DNA of 64,000 bases from a virus, in IMG/VR virus record IMGVR_UViG_3300032242_002717, positions 1 through 64,000 of that record; one strand, written 5' to 3'. Below the pieces are notes generated by a model. The model ran no database searches, was not told the origin of the DNA, and saw only the letters and a program-made list of their open reading frames with translations. The first letter of the stretch is position 1; each line of letters opens with the position of its first letter. Made by a program: the position numbers and the translations under genes. This document shows, in pieces, positions 2,944-50,266 of this stretch.

Positions 2944-3078
2944 AGACACAAGACTCAAGACACAAGAGGAGAGACACAAGGATACAAGAGATACAAGACT
3001 CAAGACTCAAGAGACACAAGGATGCAAGATACAAGAGATACAAGGATACAAGAGGAGAGACACAAGGATACAAGGATA
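2944..3078 (+). repeat. Purine-rich degenerate 7-9 bp tandem array (GACACAAG/GATACAAG/GACTCAA)
   Basis: Five ACAAGGAT copies at 2976, 3016, 3040, 3062, 3070. Confidence 0.95.
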
Positions 3079-3154
3079 GTGGTAGTGATAGTGGTAGAAT
3101 TGTTTAACATCATGACGATTAAAATAAGACAATATTGTCCTGTTTTCAGAAAAT

Positions 3155-3357
3155 TACTCTCGGCCTCCATGGCCTCCATGGCCTCCATGGCCTCCGGTCC
3201 TCCATGGCCTCCATGGCCTCCATGGCCTCCGGTCTTCTCGGCCTCCGGTCCTCCATGGCCTCCGGTCTTCTCGGCCTCCGGTCTTCCTGTACTCTCGGCC
3301 TCCGGTCCTCCGGTCTTCTCGGCCTCCGGTCTTCCTGTACTCTCGGCCTCCGGTCCT
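3155..3357 (-). repeat. GC-rich tandem array of GGCCTCCAT / CCTCCGGTC / CTTCTCGG units
   Basis: Seven CCTCCATGG and about nine CCTCCGGT copies. Confidence 0.95.
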
Positions 3358-3694
3358 TATTCGCCTATTTTCTAGTGCGATTAAGCAACCTACTATCGAC
3401 GGATTGCAGATTGATTACGATTCTGGGGATAGTCCCCGCCCCCCCTACCATCGGCAATGGCGCGCCATGCCATGGGGGCGGCGTAGTCTCCCCTCCGCGA
3501 TAGCAGGTAAAGTGAAATCTGCAATGGTCTTTGGTAGTATGTACTAAACGTATGTACCGTTTTTGGCGACTCGGTAGTAAAGAGCGTGCTGTATATTGGC
3601 ATGCTCTTATGCGGTCGCTGTGGCTCTGTAGCGAGCCTTAAGGATGCGTACTGGCTATTAGGACGGGTACGCCTTAGGTGGCCTTGTAGGGGCT

Positions 3695-18189: not shown

Positions 18190-18987
18190 TTGAGCCTCCT
18201 TTGCGAGTTGTTACCTCAAAGGTTGAGTTTAATGTGGGTTCGACTCCCATCGCTGCCATTGCGGTTTGCCGATTCTCATGGCCGTAGGATTTATTTTAAC
18301 TTGATTACCATGTATGGCACTCAAGAGGGATGGAGCTTTCCAACTCTTGATATTAATATGGCGGCAAGGCCAAGCGACATCGTTTTGCCTTGGATTAAAT
18401 GGGGAGAAAACAGGTCTCAAATTAAATATCCTGGGAGATCTGCCCATTTCTATGCCTGGGACTTTATTTTCAGGGCGTTGCAAAAACATCCAGAAAAATT
18501 GATTTCAAGCCAATTTTCAGTTGCGATTGAACCAAACTTTTCTACTTGGGATAGACAACCTTCGATTGAAGCCTTGTGGACAATATACAGAAAACGAAAA
18601 ATAGCAAAATGGTGGCAGTCCAAGGGGTGCAAGCTAATCGTTGATCTGAATGTGTCTGACTGGCTACTTAAGTCCGGGATTGGATTGTGGGGAGTTCCGA
18701 AAGGCTGGCCATGCTACGCGACCAGATTTCATGGCGATTCAACAATTGATGAGATTGAAGCGAAATACGGATTTGCTGAAAAGCATTCTGATTCAAAGCC
18801 TGAAATGTTTTGGGTGTTTGGTGGAGGGCCAGCGGTTAAGTCGCACTGCCAAGCCAGGGGCTGGCTATGGAGCAAAGCTAGATGTTCTTGGAGAAACAGG
18901 GACGAACTGTTTGAAACAAAGAAGCTTGAAAAGATCAGTTCAGAGTTGAGTTGCGACTGGGCCGAACTTCCATGGAGTCCTCAGTAA
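18190..18987 (+). CDS. DUF4417-like protein
   Basis: HFYAWDFIF, EPNFS, WTIYRKR...WWQSKG; likely start downstream at MYGTQ. Confidence 0.7.
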   Translation: MSLLCELLPQRLSLMWVRLPSLPLRFADSHGRRIYFNLITMYGTQEGWSFPTLDINMAARPSDIVLPWIKWGENRSQIKYPGRSAHFYAWDFIFRALQKHPEKLISSQFSVAIEPNFSTWDRQPSIEALWTIYRKRKIAKWWQSKGCKLIVDLNVSDWLLKSGIGLWGVPKGWPCYATRFHGDSTIDEIEAKYGFAEKHSDSKPEMFWVFGGGPAVKSHCQARGWLWSKARCSWRNRDELFETKKLEKISSELSCDWAELPWSPQ

Positions 18988-19610
18988 TGGGAAGCGGAGG
19001 ATCTGGCAGCAAATCCAAACGCACTGGGCTAAAGGCTCAGCAAAGGCCAACTCCTGAAAGCGGAAGCCCAAACAGTTGGGACGATTCAAGTCGCGTTCCT
19101 TTGTCGAAAATGAAAGAAATCTACAAAAACAGGTTAAATACAGACATACTCGGAAGACTTGGGCACGAAAGCACGCCTAAATACAAGGAAGTAGCCGCAA
19201 GAATTGAAAAGATAGCTCGGGAACAAAAGCAATGGAATTCGAAAATAAAGACTAATGTTGTTCCTATTTCGAAAATTAGGATCGAATTAGCAAAAGAAGG
19301 AATTGTTTTAAGTAAAAAGCAATTTGACAGAATCGTTTTAGACTCGATACACAATAAAAGATATGGTGCTTCTTCGTTGTATTTAGTTAAAACAAAAACA
19401 AAACCAAAGCTTTTTAGTTCAAGATCGCAAATGGTCAGAAATGTTCAAGCAACAGGAAAGAATAAATACATATCGCGTCTTGAAGAAGAAAAGTCTAGAG
19501 CTATCATGAGATTAGATTCGAAGAGATATGAACAAACCTCCAAAGAGATTAGAAATTGGAAGCAAAGTGGAAACACTGAAGTCTCTTATTATTCCCATGT
19601 AGCTTTTTGA
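18987..19610 (+). CDS. Basic hypothetical protein (MGSGGSG start)
   Basis: TAATG coupling with the DUF4417-like gene. Confidence 0.6.
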   Translation: MGSGGSGSKSKRTGLKAQQRPTPESGSPNSWDDSSRVPLSKMKEIYKNRLNTDILGRLGHESTPKYKEVAARIEKIAREQKQWNSKIKTNVVPISKIRIELAKEGIVLSKKQFDRIVLDSIHNKRYGASSLYLVKTKTKPKLFSSRSQMVRNVQATGKNKYISRLEEEKSRAIMRLDSKRYEQTSKEIRNWKQSGNTEVSYYSHVAF

Positions 19611-19637
19611 AAATTGAGCATATAGCGCAAGCAAAAA

Positions 19638-22600
19638 ATGGCAGACGACCAACTAACGCAAAAACAGAGAGCATTAGCAGAACTTGAGCTTCGTCGTCGG
19701 GAGACGATCAAGAATCTCGGTCCTGTTTTTGATTGGTATGGAAAACCGTGTTTTTGCAAAGAGTATGATGCGGAAAAGCAGAATTGCAAAAAGCATCCAA
19801 GAGCATTGCCTCATCAAAGGCCACCTGATGGAATTGATTGGCTAACATGGATGATGCTTGCCGGTCGATCAAGCGGAAAAACCCGAGCGTCCGCTGAGTG
19901 GATTCGCTACAAGGTTGAATCTCATGCAGCAAAAGGCGAGCAGATAAGAATTGCGCTGGTGAACGAGACGGTTAGTGAAGTTCGTCGAGTGCAAATCGAG
20001 GGTGCATCGGGATTGTTGGCGGTATCTCCGCCTTGGTTTATGCCCGTCTATATACCTTCAAAAGCTGAAGTTGTATGGCCCAACGGATCTGTGGCTTACA
20101 TATTTTCAGGCGAACAGCCAGACCAACTCCGAGGACCGCAACATCACTATGCATGGTGCTTGCCTGGGTGGACTCAAGTCCTTATGGGCGATGGCACGGA
20201 AAAGCCAATCTCTGACGTTGCCATCGGCGATAAGGTGATGACAAGAGCCGGTGCAAGGACGGTTACGGCATCAATGATGACTCGTCGTTCGGCTCAATGT
20301 CTGACTATGACTTTATCAGATGGAAGAACCCTGACGGCGACCGCAGAACATCCTGTTTACATCGAAGGTCGTGGATTTGTTCCTCTTGGGCAATTAAAAC
20401 CAGGAATGCTTGTATGTGCGATAGATGCATCGTTCACGATGGAGTCTCTTATCACGTCTGGGCAAAAGGATACTACGAGACAAGAATCCGACTTCATCGT
20501 GTCATATGGCAGCAAGCATTTGGGCCAATCCCCAAGGGATTTGACGTCCACCACAAGAACGGCAACAAACTCGACAATCGAATTGAAAACCTTGAATTGC
20601 TTCTCAAGGCAGAGCATAGCAGATACCACTTTGCCATTCATATCACGCCCAACGTCAGAAAAAAAGCGGCAGAAAGATCAGTTGCCAAAATGCATCAAAG
20701 GCGGAATGCCAACGAACAAGTCGTTCGTATTTGTGCGATGTGCAAAGGCGAGTACACTAGCAGGTCTTTTACGCCATCTGCTTTCTGCTCGTCGCCATGC
20801 GTGGAAAAAGCAAGGTCTGGTGGATTCGCAGGCGAAAGCAGGATTTGCTCGCATTGCGGAGCGACTTATACAGCATACAGGAGATGCCACAAGTATTGCT
20901 CAAAGAATTGCAACAACCGTGCATCGCAAGTGCGATATGCGAATAAGGAATCGCTTCTCAAGACAGTTAAATGCGAACAATGCAGCAAAGAGTTTGACAG
21001 CAGGCGAATTAACGCAAGGTTCTGCTCAAGACCTTGTTCCCTTAACTACCACGCTCGAAATTCAAAGCGTACAACCTTGTCGGACGCTACTAGACGTCTA
21101 CGATCTAACGGTTGACAAAGAACACGAATTTTTCGCAAACCGTTTACTGGTAAGGAATTGCGATGAATTGTGCCTAACTCCAGACACCATAATAACTTGC
21201 GCCGATTTTGATAAGCCGATATCTCAAGTAGTTCCAGGCGACATGGTGTTGACTCGTGCTGGTTATCGGCCAGTTGTTGCAGCCTGGAAAACAACAGATT
21301 TAGCCGTTGTGTATCGCCTGACAGCAGACGATGGAAGTTTCATTGTTGGCACTGCCGGGCATCCTGTGTGGGTTGAGGGTGAAGGATGGGTTCCATTAGC
21401 GAATGTGAAGCCGGGCAGCAGACTGAGAAGCCTGACCTCATGCCGTGCGTTGTCTGGGGAGGTCGTCGATGGTGGCTCAATGGCCCATACTACATGTCAC
21501 GAGAAGGAAAATTGCTTCATAGGGCGATTTACGCAGAACATCATGGGCCAATCCCGAAGAACATGGACATTCACCATAAAGACTTTTGCAAAACTAATAA
21601 CGCAATTGAAAACCTTGAGGCGCTTACGAGAAGTGATCACCTCAAGTCTCATAGGATCGTTGGCTGGCCAGGTCCACCAAAGAAAGAGCTTGAACGCAGG
21701 TTCCGGCCTTGGCATTGCCGAGAGCCTGTTTCGTATACATGTAAGTGGTGCAACAAACAGTTTGTCAGCAAAGCTACATATGCATACTACTGCTCCAAAG
21801 AATGCAGAAATAGGTACGTCTGGCACATTGGCACAGATAGCGGGCCTTCAGCCAAGTCAAAGCGAATTCGAGGCAAGATATCTGAGGGAACTCGAAAGCC
21901 ATACAAAACAAAGAAACCAGAAGGCTGGAAGCCAAAAGAGAGGCCGGTCAAGCCTTTGCCTGAGTGCGTTATCTGCAAAACACAGTTTGCGGCCAAAGAC
22001 AGTCGCGGCGTTACATGCGGTTTTGAATGCGGGTGGTCACTACGAAAAAAGCGTTGGGCCGAGAAGCGTGAGCGTGGAGAGGCTTCCCGAAAGAAGTCCG
22101 GTGTATAACATTGAGGTCGAAGGGGAACACGAGTATTTCGCCAACGGTATCCTAACTCATAATTGCAAATGGTCAAAAGCCCAAGCGCAGGTTTGGGATA
22201 ATCTTCTTCTGGGCATGCGTCTTGGCAATAATCCTCAAATTGTTGTGTCTACTACGCCCCAGCCAACGCCAACCCTCCGGGCCATAATTGCAGACAAATT
22301 TACTAAAATATCGAAAGCTTCTACCTATGCCAACCGAAACAATCTTCCAGAAAAGTTCTTTGAAAGCGTAGTAAACAAATACGAGGGTACGAGAATCGGT
22401 CGCCAGGAGTTACATGCTGAGGTTTTGCTTCAGAATCAGAATGCTCTTTGGAATCAAGCTCAAATCGATTCTTTGCGAGTCAGGTCTGTTCCCTATGGGG
22501 TCGAACTTAAAAGGATAGCGGTTGGAGTAGACCCTGCTGGCAAAATATCGGAGATGGCAAAGTTTGTTCATGGCATGCCAACGGAGTCTGGATCGGGCGA

Positions 22601-23066
22601 CGAGGCGGGTGTCGTGGTAGCTGGACTTGGCACTGATGGGCACGGATATATTTTGGGCGACCATTCTACAGGCGGGTCTCCTTCGTCTTGGGGAAAGGCT
22701 GTAGGCGAAGCTTACCATAGGCATCAGGCCAACGTGGTTGTCTGGGAGTCTAATCACGGTGGCGATACGGTGCGAGATGTGATTCTAACGGTCGATCCGA
22801 ACATTGTTCAAAAGCGAGTTCATGCTAGTCGGTCCAAGTACGTTCGGGCCGAGCCTATTGGAGCATTATCTGAGCAAGGCAAAATTCACATAGTCGGCGA
22901 ACTACCACAACTCGAATCTGAAATGTGCGAGTTTGAGCCAGGTGGACCGTCTCCAAACAGGCTCGATGCAATGGTGTTTGCTCTTACAGACCTCATGATT
23001 CAGATCGAAGAAGAAGACAAACAAGAGCTTCCATTTAACAGAATTAGCATCAAGGGGCTTTTTTAA
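19638..23066 (+). CDS. terL: Terminase large subunit precursor with two inteins (mature ~477 aa)
   Basis: Walker A GRSSGKT; spliced Walker B AW-CDEL-CKW; coupling STTP; nuclease VGVDPA...SPNRLDA. Confidence 0.95.
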   Translation: MADDQLTQKQRALAELELRRRETIKNLGPVFDWYGKPCFCKEYDAEKQNCKKHPRALPHQRPPDGIDWLTWMMLAGRSSGKTRASAEWIRYKVESHAAKGEQIRIALVNETVSEVRRVQIEGASGLLAVSPPWFMPVYIPSKAEVVWPNGSVAYIFSGEQPDQLRGPQHHYAWCLPGWTQVLMGDGTEKPISDVAIGDKVMTRAGARTVTASMMTRRSAQCLTMTLSDGRTLTATAEHPVYIEGRGFVPLGQLKPGMLVCAIDASFTMESLITSGQKDTTRQESDFIVSYGSKHLGQSPRDLTSTTRTATNSTIELKTLNCFSRQSIADTTLPFISRPTSEKKRQKDQLPKCIKGGMPTNKSFVFVRCAKASTLAGLLRHLLSARRHAWKKQGLVDSQAKAGFARIAERLIQHTGDATSIAQRIATTVHRKCDMRIRNRFSRQLNANNAAKSLTAGELTQGSAQDLVPLTTTLEIQSVQPCRTLLDVYDLTVDKEHEFFANRLLVRNCDELCLTPDTIITCADFDKPISQVVPGDMVLTRAGYRPVVAAWKTTDLAVVYRLTADDGSFIVGTAGHPVWVEGEGWVPLANVKPGSRLRSLTSCRALSGEVVDGGSMAHTTCHEKENCFIGRFTQNIMGQSRRTWTFTIKTFAKLITQLKTLRRLREVITSSLIGSLAGQVHQRKSLNAGSGLGIAESLFRIHVSGATNSLSAKLHMHTTAPKNAEIGTSGTLAQIAGLQPSQSEFEARYLRELESHTKQRNQKAGSQKRGRSSLCLSALSAKHSLRPKTVAALHAVLNAGGHYEKSVGPRSVSVERLPERSPVYNIEVEGEHEYFANGILTHNCKWSKAQAQVWDNLLLGMRLGNNPQIVVSTTPQPTPTLRAIIADKFTKISKASTYANRNNLPEKFFESVVNKYEGTRIGRQELHAEVLLQNQNALWNQAQIDSLRVRSVPYGVELKRIAVGVDPAGKISEMAKFVHGMPTESGSGDEAGVVVAGLGTDGHGYILGDHSTGGSPSSWGKAVGEAYHRHQANVVVWESNHGGDTVRDVILTVDPNIVQKRVHASRSKYVRAEPIGALSEQGKIHIVGELPQLESEMCEFEPGGPSPNRLDAMVFALTDLMIQIEEEDKQELPFNRISIKGLF
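20157..21158 (+). mobile_element. Intein 1 (334 aa)
   Basis: Block A CLPGWTQV, block B TAEHPV, block F VYDLTV..HEFFAN, ends LVRN before Cys+1. Confidence 0.92.
20414..21115 (+). CDS. HNH endonuclease with three Zn-finger repeats, overlapping intein 1 in the -1 frame
   Basis: RLHRVIW...DVHHKNGNKLDNRIENL; CxxC..F/YCS..C x3; AGGA 8 nt before ATG 20414 (ORF open from 20297). Confidence 0.88.
   Translation: MCDRCIVHDGVSYHVWAKGYYETRIRLHRVIWQQAFGPIPKGFDVHHKNGNKLDNRIENLELLLKAEHSRYHFAIHITPNVRKKAAERSVAKMHQRRNANEQVVRICAMCKGEYTSRSFTPSAFCSSPCVEKARSGGFAGESRICSHCGATYTAYRRCHKYCSKNCNNRASQVRYANKESLLKTVKCEQCSKEFDSRRINARFCSRPCSLNYHARNSKRTTLSDATRRLRSNG
21171..22163 (+). mobile_element. Intein 2 (331 aa)
   Basis: Block A CLTPDT, block B TAGHPV, block F VYNIEV..HEYFAN, ends THN before Cys+1. 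Confidence 0.93.
21386..22108 (+). CDS. HNH endonuclease with Zn-finger repeats, overlapping intein 2 in the -1 frame
   Basis: LLHRAIY...DIHHKDFCKTNNAIENL; two CxxC..C..C fingers; GAGG 7 nt before ATG 21386. Confidence 0.88.
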   Translation: MGSISECEAGQQTEKPDLMPCVVWGGRRWWLNGPYYMSREGKLLHRAIYAEHHGPIPKNMDIHHKDFCKTNNAIENLEALTRSDHLKSHRIVGWPGPPKKELERRFRPWHCREPVSYTCKWCNKQFVSKATYAYYCSKECRNRYVWHIGTDSGPSAKSKRIRGKISEGTRKPYKTKKPEGWKPKERPVKPLPECVICKTQFAAKDSRGVTCGFECGWSLRKKRWAEKRERGEASRKKSGV

Positions 23067-24854
23067 ATGCCAGCGAACACGCCTTCGGCAACAACCAATG
23101 CTTTAAAAGAAAACCTTGAAATTATTCAAAGGCGTTCTCGGGAATATCTTGAGCATGTTGACAGATGGAATTTTCTTCTTGATTCTCTAGAGGGTGGCAA
23201 TCGTTACAGGTTTGCGACCTATGGTGAATTCCCATACGAATACAGTTATCAGAGAGTGGTCCCAGGTGCTGCTGCTGCCAGACCTGAAAGAACAATTGCA
23301 AACGTCTATAGGATTCAGCTTCGACGATACAATCTGATCCGTCACCCAAGAGAATATCCCGATCCACGCGACGACGCTCCGGCTGTAGACCCATTTGAGC
23401 TTCGCAGGGAAAGAACTCCGGTCCCAATTTATGTGCAAAGATCTGTTGAGAAGCATCTTAGCCGAATCTATGCGCAGGAAGTCGGAAGAGACGGTCCTGA
23501 TAACATAAAACTCTGGTGGAAGAATGTCGATGGATGCGGATCAAACATCGATCATTGGATGGCGAACGAATTCGCTCCAATGTTCCTTGTTTTGGGGCAA
23601 CTAGACTTAGTATTCGATCATCCTCAAGCTCCTGCTGGAGTAAAAATCAGAACTAAGGCCGATGAGAAGAAGTACGGGTTAGACAAGTGTGTAGTTTCTT
23701 ACTACTTGCCTGAGAACGTGCTTTGGTGGAAGCTTTATCCAAATCGACAATATCAGGAAGTGGTTGTAAGGGAGCTTGTTGATCAAGATGCTACGATTCA
23801 GCAGTCGTATGTAAGGCTGCAATTCAAGTGGAATTATCGACATTGGAGAGAAGACGGATGGACTTTGTATTCGGACGAGGGTCTTGAGCTTGATTCCGGC
23901 ACATATTCCTATGGAAGACCTCCGATGGTTCGGATCTTCGATAGAAAGAAGCCAAGGTGCAAGAATGTTGGTCAAAGTAGATATGAGTCAATAGCTGAGC
24001 GACAAAGAGAAGTCTATAACTTAAGCTCAGAGTTGATTCTCGCAAATACTACGCAAGCTTTTCCCATGCTCCAGGGACCAGAAAAGTATTTGGCTGGAGA
24101 CAATACGATTCCCGTTGGACCAGAACGTATACTTCCAATTTGGTCAAACAAAGATGGTAGCAACCACCACGGTTGGTCGGTTGTGGATTTTCCTAAAACT
24201 GGCGTTGATTTCATACAGAAGACAATAGAAGACCAGAGAAGAGAGGCCGACCGCGAAGCGGCACTTTCTGGATCATCTGACAACGCAGTTTCTGCTGCTG
24301 CAAAAGCTTTCGACTTTAGAGAAGGAAATGACTTACTGTCCAGCATTGCTGGAGTATTGGGTAAGGCAGAGCAAACAATATCGCAATATGCATTGTGGGT
24401 TCTCTCTAATGGAGAGCAGACCCCAATGGGAGATCAGGGTGAAGACGAAATCAATATCACCTACCCAAGAAAGTTTGATTTGCAGACAGCCGACCAAATT
24501 ATTCAGGTAATGAGCAGGCTTCAGCAAGTTGTCATGGGTGCTGGATGCCTTCCAAAAGCGGAAGCCGATTATCTAAAAACATCTGTAAGGCTTTCTCTTC
24601 CAGGTCGAACAGATGAAGAATACGAAGTGTTTAACAATGAGATAGACGAGTGGATTGACTACAAACACAATGTAATGCCAACAATCATTCTTCCGCCTGG
24701 ATCTCCAGGAGTAATTGGTCCAGGAGGCGGAGGCATTGCAGATAAAGGCGGAACCGATAAGCTTTTGGCACCTTCAGCACCTGCTGCACAAATACCAACA
24801 AGAAGTCTGGACATCGAAGACATTATTGATGGTCCTTCGGGTCCATCGATGTAA
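23067..24854 (+). CDS. Portal protein
   Basis: Directly after terL, 595 aa, synteny. Confidence 0.75.
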   Translation: MPANTPSATTNALKENLEIIQRRSREYLEHVDRWNFLLDSLEGGNRYRFATYGEFPYEYSYQRVVPGAAAARPERTIANVYRIQLRRYNLIRHPREYPDPRDDAPAVDPFELRRERTPVPIYVQRSVEKHLSRIYAQEVGRDGPDNIKLWWKNVDGCGSNIDHWMANEFAPMFLVLGQLDLVFDHPQAPAGVKIRTKADEKKYGLDKCVVSYYLPENVLWWKLYPNRQYQEVVVRELVDQDATIQQSYVRLQFKWNYRHWREDGWTLYSDEGLELDSGTYSYGRPPMVRIFDRKKPRCKNVGQSRYESIAERQREVYNLSSELILANTTQAFPMLQGPEKYLAGDNTIPVGPERILPIWSNKDGSNHHGWSVVDFPKTGVDFIQKTIEDQRREADREAALSGSSDNAVSAAAKAFDFREGNDLLSSIAGVLGKAEQTISQYALWVLSNGEQTPMGDQGEDEINITYPRKFDLQTADQIIQVMSRLQQVVMGAGCLPKAEADYLKTSVRLSLPGRTDEEYEVFNNEIDEWIDYKHNVMPTIILPPGSPGVIGPGGGGIADKGGTDKLLAPSAPAAQIPTRSLDIEDIIDGPSGPSM

Positions 24855-48384: not shown

Positions 48385-49572
48385 ATGGACTCGCATGACC
48401 CAAGAAGCCCAAACAGGATAGCCTGGCTTCAGAGCCTGAACCAATGCGCGGATCGCAGAGATAACCCGGTCCCAGTCGGCGGAATCGTAAGTCGATATCA
48501 GACGCCAAATAAGAGAATTGTGATCAGAGCTAACCTGTATGGTCACGGCGGCTACGGGCAGCTTGCAGAATGGACTGGCAGGGAACTTGAGTCGCATGGA
48601 ATCCCTGTAGCGTACGACCCGATAGCAGTTATCGAAGAATTTATTCCTTTGCAAGCTTTTGTGCGAGACCGACTTATCGTTTCGCCGGTCGATAATTGGG
48701 AGCTTTTGCTCTCTACGCCATCAACCAAACCTATGCCCAACAAAAATAGCGTGTTTTTTTCAATGTGGGAGACTACTGGCATAAATCGGACATCTGTGTC
48801 CAATTTAAATCAGTCAAAGTTTGTTATTGTGCCATGCAAATTCAACAGAGACACCTTTTTTGATTGTGGAGTGAATGTTCCTATCGATATCGTGCCTTTG
48901 GGAGTCGATGGAGATAAATGGACTTGCACGGACATGCCAAGGTATCCGTCTGGAGACACGGTGTTTGTGACAGCCGCGAGGCATTCCCATGGTGGCGTAA
49001 GAAAAAATACTATTGATATGGCGAGAGCGTTTTGCGAGGCATTCCCTAAAGGTGACGAGCCTGTTCAATTCAGAATCAAGTGCTTTACGGACTGTCAATC
49101 GCATCTTGATAATCTGCCAAGAGATAAAAGAATCAGAGTCTACAAAAACACCATGACCGATGACCAGTTAGTCGATTGGTGCAAAGAATCCACGGTTGGA
49201 GTTTTTTGTTCAAGGGGAGAGGGTTGGGGCATGCACATACACCAATTCCTTTCAATTGGGAGGCCGGTGATTACATGCTTTGGTTCGGCGATGAACGATT
49301 ATTGCAACCGCGATGTTGCTTTCCCTGTTGAGTTCAAGTGGGAAAAAGCGAGAGACTGTTATGAAGACAGTGGATCTTGGATGGTCCCATTGAGGGAAAG
49401 CATGATAAGCACTTTTCAATATGTATTTAATAATAGATGCGAGGTTCAGAAAATGTCTGGTTTATGCGCGGTGAAAGCGAGGGAGTTTACCTGGAAAACA
49501 ATGGGAAACAAGCTTGTAGAAACACTGAAGATGCGTGGACTACTAAAAGAAATTGGATTTCCAGATGTATAA
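48385..49572 (+). CDS. GT-B (family 4-like) glycosyltransferase
   Basis: GGYG, MWETT, VPLGVD, RKN, SRGEGWGM. Confidence 0.85.
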   Translation: MDSHDPRSPNRIAWLQSLNQCADRRDNPVPVGGIVSRYQTPNKRIVIRANLYGHGGYGQLAEWTGRELESHGIPVAYDPIAVIEEFIPLQAFVRDRLIVSPVDNWELLLSTPSTKPMPNKNSVFFSMWETTGINRTSVSNLNQSKFVIVPCKFNRDTFFDCGVNVPIDIVPLGVDGDKWTCTDMPRYPSGDTVFVTAARHSHGGVRKNTIDMARAFCEAFPKGDEPVQFRIKCFTDCQSHLDNLPRDKRIRVYKNTMTDDQLVDWCKESTVGVFCSRGEGWGMHIHQFLSIGRPVITCFGSAMNDYCNRDVAFPVEFKWEKARDCYEDSGSWMVPLRESMISTFQYVFNNRCEVQKMSGLCAVKAREFTWKTMGNKLVETLKMRGLLKEIGFPDV

Positions 49573-50266
49573 TAACGACGAAAAAAACAGAGAAATGATT
49601 GCCGAGATTCAACTTGGCGATAATCAGGCTCTGGAAGAACTTATCAACTTGAACATGCCGATGGTAAAGGCAGTTGTTAGAGACGTTCTGAAAGGGTGGT
49701 CCAAGTCAAGAAGGTCGAATTTCTCAAGCGATCTGCAACAAGAAGGCGTGATAGCCCTTATTGAGTCATCTCGCAAGTTCAACCTTGAGTCAAAGACTAT
49801 TTTTTATTCTTATGCAAAGAAAGCGATATATCGACGGGTTGTCAGAAAAACGAGAGACATGCTGATAGTCTCGATTCCAAGCACTGTACTCGATTGCAAT
49901 ATGGAAGCATCGAAAGCCGCATTTAGTCTTGAGGCGATAGGCAATAGCAATGGTGGCTTCGAGGGAATGATCGAGAGAGAATGTTGCTTGACGAGCGATG
50001 GTGGAATGAGTCAGATTGAAAACGTAGAAGACATGGAATTTGTGGACTCAATATCAGACATGGTCGATGCTATGCCAGAGATGCTCGCCAGGTGCGTCAA
50101 GCTCAGGCACGGTTACGAGAAAGGCAAATGGTGCTGCGAGAACAGCATGTCTTATCGAGAGATGGGCCATGAGCTAGGAATCTCTCATGTGTGGGCAAGG
50201 GTTGTTTATACTCTCGCCCAACAAGAGTTAAAAATGATGGTTTGCGACATGAGGAACAAAATTTAG
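49553..50266 (+). CDS. sigma70-family sigma factor 3
   Basis: LINLNMPMV, DLQQEGVIALIESSRKFN...FYSYA; MSYREMGHELGIS. Confidence 0.85.
   Translation: MDFQMYNNDEKNREMIAEIQLGDNQALEELINLNMPMVKAVVRDVLKGWSKSRRSNFSSDLQQEGVIALIESSRKFNLESKTIFYSYAKKAIYRRVVRKTRDMLIVSIPSTVLDCNMEASKAAFSLEAIGNSNGGFEGMIERECCLTSDGGMSQIENVEDMEFVDSISDMVDAMPEMLARCVKLRHGYEKGKWCCENSMSYREMGHELGISHVWARVVYTLAQQELKMMVCDMRNKI

Follow-up and report, generated by a model that had tools for sequence, protein, structure and literature searches.

Several systems are known in which a homing endonuclease gene overlaps the coding frame of its host. In all brucellaphages, an out-of-frame HNH gene lies within an intein of terL, the gene for the large terminase subunit (Farlow et al. 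2015, PMC4422536). For actinophage inteins with an out-of-frame nuclease, a free-standing nuclease gene is proposed to have invaded the intein (Gosselin et al., 2025). The cyanobacterial dnaX intein, first noted in 1998 (Gorbalenya 1998), harbors a +2-frame LAGLIDADG endonuclease under frame-specific selection (Phillips, DeSimone & Gogarten, bioRxiv 10.64898/2026.09.14.751524). Hidden out-of-frame HNH insertions occur in phage DNA methylases of the ShiLan type (Arsenault et al. 2025, PMC11855218), and fractured genes have split inteins on either side of a free-standing gene for an endonuclease (Dassa et al. 2009, PMC2677866). Here we describe the terL locus of an uncultured phage, found in positions 1–64,000 (hereafter the window) of IMG/VR record IMGVR_UViG_3300032242_002717 (87,401 bp). 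In our reading, to which as a whole we assign a probability of roughly 0.8, this terL carries two class-1 inteins, and the linker DNA of each is a +2-frame gene for an I-HmuI-like HNH_3 nuclease with zinc ribbons.

The terL open reading frame (ORF; 19638–23066, on the + strand, as are its parts and the ORFs nested in it) is single and uninterrupted over 1142 amino acids (aa). By Pfam and PHROG profiles it matches Terminase_6N, Terminase_6C, Intein_splicing and Hint, together with PHROG terminase large subunit families. Removal of both inteins in silico leaves a 477-aa TerL (...HHYAW-CDEL-CKW...) in which the Walker B motif is restored. The N-extein (19638–20156, 173 aa) contains the Walker A motif GRSSGKT and ends in ...HHYAW, whereas the extein between the two inteins comprises only the four residues CDEL (21159–21170, 12 nt), with the result that the Walker B Asp-Glu is flanked by an intein on either side. 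The C-extein (22164–23066, 300 aa) contains the remaining ATPase domain and the RNaseH-like nuclease domain. The intein-free state is seen in homologues. Site 1 is contiguous (HHFAWCDEL) in L001, an 84.7-kb IMG/VR contig whose C-extein protein is 85% identical to that of the window, and the more distant L002 carries neither intein and reads LWADELALW (LWADEL/ALW at the insertion site). Homologues of the terL inteins were retrieved from the library (P0002–P0034); a blastn search of GenBank phages with terL as the query gave zero matches.

Intein 1 (20157–21158, 334 aa, CLPGW...LLVRN) and intein 2 (21171–22163, 331 aa, CLTPDT...ILTHN) are each followed by a cysteine at the +1 position. The Hint fold is matched by the profiles Intein_splicing (7.4e-15), Vint, Hint, PT-HINT and Hint_2, and both inteins keep the splicing residues Cys1, the block B TxxH motif (TAEH and TAGH, respectively), the terminal Asn and Cys+1. 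On the criteria of profile, motif and insertion site, both are class-1 inteins that are predicted to splice in cis; the host is one uninterrupted 1142-aa ORF and not a split intein or a fractured gene. Each is built like a mini-intein: splicing domains of ~95 aa (N-terminal) and ~40 aa (C-terminal) are connected by a linker of ~200 aa. In the AlphaFold2 model of intein 1, translated in the terL frame, the pLDDT score (predicted local distance difference test) is 95–98 for residues 1–95 and 296–334 and falls to 40–78 in the linker (residues 100–295). This linker (20442–21041) is a stop-free spacer, and a Pfam search of the terL-frame linkers of both inteins found no domain.

The nucleases appear when the same DNA is translated in the +2 frame relative to terL, which is stop-free over 20234–21112 and 21383–22105, with stops at 21113 and 22106, inside block F. 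HNH1 (20414–21115) is 233 aa long from ATG 20414 (272 aa from an upstream ATG at 20297), matches HNH_3 (2.1e-20) and phrog_15471 (4e-24), and consists of an HNH_3 core (20489–20623) and three CxxC...CSxxC zinc ribbons. HNH2 (21386–22108) is 240 aa long from ATG 21386 (222 aa from ATG 21440), matches the same two families (4.3e-15 and 1e-17, respectively), and combines an HNH_3 core (21509–21640) with two zinc ribbons; its start region and its last 19 codons, proximal to block F, are borrowed from intein DNA. The HNH_3 scores of 72.5 bits (HNH1) and 55.5 bits (HNH2) compare with a curated Pfam cut-off of 24.8. In a 52-sequence family alignment that has both proteins as rows, HNH1 and HNH2 alike keep the invariant His, Asn and Cys columns. 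By BLASTP the two are 37% identical over 128 aligned aa (67 bits, E = 3e-18), whereas the terL-frame translations of the same two stretches match each other only in a 38-aa stretch that shadows the HNH motif (22.7 bits, E = 0.004). Shine–Dalgarno (SD)-like motifs precede both ORFs: AGGA (20402–20405) lies 8 nt before ATG 20414, and GAGGG (21375–21379) lies 6 nt before ATG 21386. An earlier reading of this DNA from its letters and reading frames, here called the first-pass annotation, had placed an HNH nuclease in this frame (there named −1) of each intein, with no recognizable domain opposite it in the terL frame, an SD-like start and a stop in block F. All of this was borne out, the coordinates included, and the sizes that it gave for the products (477 aa for the spliced extein and ~27 kDa for the nucleases) are correct as computed from the sequence.

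The AlphaFold2 model of HNH1, built on the 52-sequence alignment, has a mean pLDDT of 81.6, above 90 in the core, and its three beta-hairpin ribbon modules match the CxxC...CSxxC repeats. The top Foldseek match of the model is I-HmuI (PDB 1u3e; probability 1.00, E = 7e-3). It is the one meaningful match, the others of the whole model being generic zinc fingers, and a profile search matches 1u3e as well (E = 2e-4). The model thus points to an I-HmuI-like beta-beta-alpha-metal fold for HNH1, with predicted nuclease activity. The closest relatives of HNH1 in the library (P0036–P0044) are 40–49% identical. Scans found no close relative of HNH2 in metagenome contigs and none of HNH1 in genome contigs, and the HNH1 scan of metagenome contigs returned distant matches only. 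In a quick tree of the family, the deep nodes of which are weak, HNH1 and HNH2 do not appear as sisters, which speaks against a recent intragenic duplication but does not formally reject it.

The probability of such an overlap arising by chance was calculated exactly, with the amino-acid sequence of one frame fixed and codons drawn from the codon usage of the window. When the HNH sequence is fixed, the terL frame is open with P = 2.4e-4 (HNH1) and 3.7e-4 (HNH2); when the terL-frame peptide is fixed, the HNH frame is open with P = 2e-9 and 5e-8, respectively. The longest open run in an alternative frame of the other long genes of the window is at most 158 codons, against 293 here. The value of ~1e-5 offered by the first-pass annotation is therefore somewhat too small for each intein, while the joint probability is far smaller.

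The integrity of the sequence was checked on assembled contigs. An independently assembled 24-kb Logan contig, which may derive from the source sample, covers 19400–23300 with zero differences and zero gaps. In a second sample of the same study, two short contigs cover 19967–20339 and 20440–20700 and carry four substitutions and no insertions or deletions (indels). The compensating indels that the first-pass annotation had named as a refutation are absent from the stretches covered by these contigs. Three of the four substitutions fall within HNH1. Two of these leave the HNH protein unchanged but alter the terL-frame translation, and the third does the opposite. The numbers are small, and their direction is that expected for selection on the HNH frame.

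The overlapped arrangement recurs throughout the family. A scan of IMG/VR with an HNH alignment gave 248 confirmed loci, and the survey that follows was made on the best 80 of these (81 HNH places). At 60 of the 81 places a second frame of the same strand is open across the whole HNH match, in an ORF that is typically 600–900 codons long. Among 56 such covering ORFs, 46 match Intein_splicing and 33 match Hint_2; most match terminase families, and three are DNA methylases. Together with L003, phage TJE1 and the two places of the window, 64 nested places were compared, and the HNH frame is host+2 in 56 of them, as in the window, and host+1 in eight. The latter form a single clade of the HNH tree, which indicates that the offset is inherited. 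That host+2 is the usual offset can be traced to the stop content of the host frame, since stops in free-standing homologues number 0.037 per codon in frame HNH+1 compared with 0.108 in HNH+2; the host frame of the common arrangement is thus about three times less stop-prone for this family. No in-frame HNH fusion was found among 85 places.

At the 21 non-nested places, the HNH gene is free-standing in 15 and lies between separate ORFs for the two intein halves (IntN and IntC) in six. These six (L013, L020, L028, L034, L051 and L081) have their halves in the same frame in three cases and in different frames in three, and they could represent either genuine split inteins or nested ones that have broken. 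The first-pass annotation had suggested an architecture intermediate between contiguous and split inteins, and the occurrence of one clade in nested, split and free-standing form agrees with that suggestion. Cultured phages show two of these states: the terL genes of Tetrasphaera phage TJE1 and of Acinetobacter phage Highwayman (L087; a 760-aa intein-bearing terL) each contain a nested member of the clade, and free-standing members lie beside packaging genes of Acinetobacter phage BP10 and Lactobacillus phage CL2. In BP10 (L089), the free-standing HNH gene lies just upstream of terS, next to a 469-aa intein-less terL.

Within the overlap, the ratio of non-synonymous to synonymous substitution rates (dN/dS) was determined for eight related pairs of family members, in six of which dS of the HNH frame could be estimated and in two of which it was saturated. 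The ratio is 0.07–0.20 in the HNH frame, 1.2–2.5 in the host frame and 1.0–1.9 in the unused third frame. The host frame does not differ from the third frame, which identifies the linker as a spacer that is kept only stop-free. The claim that both frames are selected therefore stands, in these related pairs, for the HNH frame, which is conserved as the first-pass annotation required of it, and fails for the host frame beyond the exclusion of stop codons. The term 'dual coding' would accordingly be valid for translation and overstated for function at the level of sequence.

Comparison with L001 suggests that the elements are mobile. As noted above, L001 is without intein 1. At the site of intein 2 it has a 132-aa mini-intein from which the HNH module is absent: 602 nt in the window (21448–22049) stand against 5 nt (AAGGC) in L001, a net difference of 597 nt or 199 codons. 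The splicing domains of intein 2 are 86–89% identical in DNA between the two, whereas the exteins reach 69–80% and the portal gene 68%. The comparison appears compatible with gain and with loss of the HNH module alike, and the presence and absence of elements between close relatives, judged from this one relative, is as would be expected of mobile elements. In the terL of L001 (L001:3805–6900), the P-loop is interrupted after GRSAGK by a third intein that differs from the other two and is missing from the window; it is ~424 aa long and includes a LAGLIDADG-like domain in frame. Its first residue is apparently Leu or Ser, and it may be of class-3 type.

Separate translation of the nucleases is suggested by the SD-like motifs described above and by their enrichment in the family, where an SD-like motif precedes the in-frame start in 49% of nested members compared with 25% at random positions in the same ORFs. 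ATG 20414 is matched in position by the start codons of the closest library relatives of HNH1, which are ~225 aa long. For HNH2, the alternative start ATG 21440 sits 8 nt upstream of the HNH-module junction and corresponds to CTG in the L001 mini-intein, a difference of one base that is synonymous in the terL frame (TCA versus TCC).

These observations can be assembled into a pathway. Ribosomes would read through each linker in the terL frame, as a spacer without a recognizable fold, and both inteins would then splice in cis to give the 477-aa TerL. The ~27-kDa nucleases would be made separately, by internal initiation on the terL mRNA at ATG 20414 and at ATG 21386 or 21440. They would nick or cut the intein-less terL of co-infecting relatives, and repair would copy the intein together with its nuclease gene (homing).

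Several points weigh against this reading. The penultimate residue of intein 1 is Arg (Arg-Asn, 21153–21158) where His is usual, although a penultimate His is not obligatory in inteins; intein 2 has the canonical His-Asn. The two inteins are four residues apart and might interfere with each other's splicing. The GAGGG motif before ATG 21386 is also found, in the same DNA, in the L001 mini-intein that has no HNH module, and it therefore need not be selected for HNH translation. A promoter scan upstream of both HNH ORFs gave nothing beyond chance, and a search of RNA runs found none that contains the locus. Finally, the dN/dS evidence stems from other members of the family and not from the two copies in the window, either of which could be a recently inactivated gene.

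The last point leads to the alternative that both copies are relics: a free-standing nuclease gene would once have invaded each mini-intein and now be untranslated or inactive, the inteins persisting since terL must stay open and splice. Mini-intein derivatives do exist, as in L001, and selection was measured elsewhere in the family. Yet the +2 frame, which host selection does not protect, is intact over 233–240 codons, against the small chances calculated above for a fixed terL-frame peptide; none of the invariant catalytic and Cys residues of the family has been lost; relatives are under strong purifying selection in the HNH frame; and two of the three second-sample substitutions in HNH1 are silent in that frame. 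We regard relics as unlikely. A different doubt concerns the sequence itself, in that the HNH domains might truly be in frame, as in the canonical HNH inteins of the literature, and have been shifted by compensating indel errors in what is, after all, a metagenome assembly. This would require four precise errors and, in addition, a terL frame that is open by chance (P ~3e-4 per intein). It would also have to be reconciled with the identical, gap-free Logan contig and the indel-free stretches of the second sample, with the same layout at 60 of 81 IMG/VR places and in the cultured phages TJE1, Highwayman and Brucella phage Tb, and with the failure to find any in-frame version in this HNH clade. 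An artefact of this kind is highly improbable.

Two further alternatives accept the nuclease genes and differ in what they do or how they are expressed. The HNH proteins could be packaging cofactors of the terminase, of the HK97 gp74 type, placed within terL for co-expression, an idea raised for brucellaphages (Farlow et al. 2015) and in keeping with free-standing relatives that adjoin terS, terL or portal genes in the cultured phages CL2, BP10 and PAE1. However, the terL with which L001, a close relative, packages has neither intein 1 nor the HNH2 module; HNH genes of this clade are hidden in DNA methylase genes as well (L029); among solved structures, the homing nickase I-HmuI is the nearest; and sporadic presence and absence is the signature of a selfish element. 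A cofactor role is thus very unlikely. As for expression, programmed ribosomal frameshifting could fuse HNH to the intein or extein polypeptide with no separate initiation, both frames being open on one mRNA. An A_AAA_AAG −1 slippery heptamer is present in phase with terL at 20660–20666, but it lies after the HNH catalytic motif and probably just reflects Lys codons read in the HNH frame. Ahead of the HNH core, in the stretches in which the +2 frame opens (20234–20470 and 21383–21480), there is no in-phase slippery heptamer. A second shift back would be required to regain the C-terminal splicing domain, whereas SD-preceded ATGs stand at the start position of stand-alone homologues. We give frameshifting almost no weight.

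The reading of two inteins with separately translated nucleases can be taken one step further, to paired homing. The two elements are 12 nt apart, and each likely recognition site therefore spans the insertion point of the other. If the two enzymes worked as a pair, each nicking one of the two strands near the Walker B codons, the nicks could combine into a double-strand break, and the 2-kb double-intein cassette would home as a unit. The tandem arrangement would in that case be selected and not accidental. In a broader form of the idea, the HNH_3 and zinc-ribbon clade would be of ancient origin and persist almost exclusively as an overlapped tenant of inteins. We consider this speculative extension improbable.

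In the neighborhood of terL, the portal gene (23067–24854) follows directly. A 219-aa ORF just before terL (18951–19610) is without a family match and may encode the small terminase subunit, and an ORF upstream of the packaging genes (18190–18987) matches the PHROG nuclease family phrog_940 (E = 7e-21). Outside the window, two loci of related content were noted. A DNA methylase ORF (L029:1190–3586, 798 aa, with a DPPY motif) hides a pair of out-of-frame HNH ORFs (1819–2289 and 2959–3387) that belong to the same clade. Inspection of its sequence, without a dedicated profile scan of that ORF alone, shows no intein splicing domain, and the locus looks like a double ShiLan-type insertion. In Brevundimonas phage Poludnitsa (GenBank ON529862), a relative of HNH2 lies at 49465–50043 under a gene annotated as portal protein, and it may represent an HNH gene nested out of frame within an intein of the portal gene.

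As a further example of a known layout, the locus opens no new question, and its value lies in what it adds to that layout. Gene callers forbid long overlaps, with the consequence that annotations miss the nested nuclease genes and class such inteins as mini-inteins or as 'decaying'. For this HNH clade, overlap is the usual state (found in about three quarters of the examined loci), with a fixed, inherited offset and selection on the nuclease frame only. The same clade also occurs split and free-standing, and it could serve in the study of how nuclease genes colonize inteins and how split inteins originate. The tandem pair at Walker B would allow competition to be tested against cooperation between neighboring homing elements.

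The first-pass annotation had mentioned that out-of-frame endonuclease inteins were reported in actinobacteriophages, and that statement is correct, for the actinophage report and others exist. In the brucellaphages (Perisivirus Tb, Pr and relatives), as in the window, an intein of terL contains a complete zinc-ribbon HNH gene, out of frame and on the same strand. The record of Brucella phage Tb (JN939331, ORF_07 and ORF_08) notes 'intein present' in terL and a nested HNH ORF, which Pfam confirms. The brucellaphage HNH differs in belonging to Pfam PF01844, with its ribbons N-terminal to HNH, in its host+1 offset and in the presence of one intein; that of phage Tb has no significant similarity to HNH1 (E = 0.21), and the Brucella precedent is one of layout and not of the same nuclease family. 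The actinophage inteins, terL inteins included, have the nuclease in 'frame 3' relative to the intein and an in-frame linker that is unstructured in predictions. Their nuclease is Endonuclease VII-like, in contrast to HNH_3 with zinc ribbons here, their host range is another, and no tandem pair is described (Gosselin et al., 2025).

The dnaX intein shares with the window a +2 overlapping ORF, SD-like motifs, a disordered in-frame linker, co-existing mini-intein alleles, and a dN/dS that is low in the nuclease frame and raised in the host frame, but its nuclease is a LAGLIDADG enzyme and its host a cellular replication gene. ShiLan-type insertions likewise place an out-of-frame HNH inside an open host frame, L029 being a case with the HNH clade of the window; they have no splicing domain and stay in the host protein, whereas the inserts of the window would be removable by protein splicing. 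The split layout of fractured genes is found in six IMG/VR relatives of the clade, while the host ORF of the window is contiguous and its splicing would be in cis. With I-HmuI and the zinc-ribbon HNH nicking endonucleases (PDB 1u3e; Xu & Gupta 2013, PMC3592412), HNH1 and HNH2 share the HNH core fold, the sequence profile, zinc-ribbon DNA-binding modules and the location of their genes near terminase genes; those enzymes are intron-encoded or free-standing and have no overlapping host frame. In sum, the layout has already been published for brucellaphages (2012–2015), actinophages (2025) and cyanobacterial dnaX (2026), and the one unusual feature of the present locus is that two divergent elements of this type stand 12 nt apart around Walker B.

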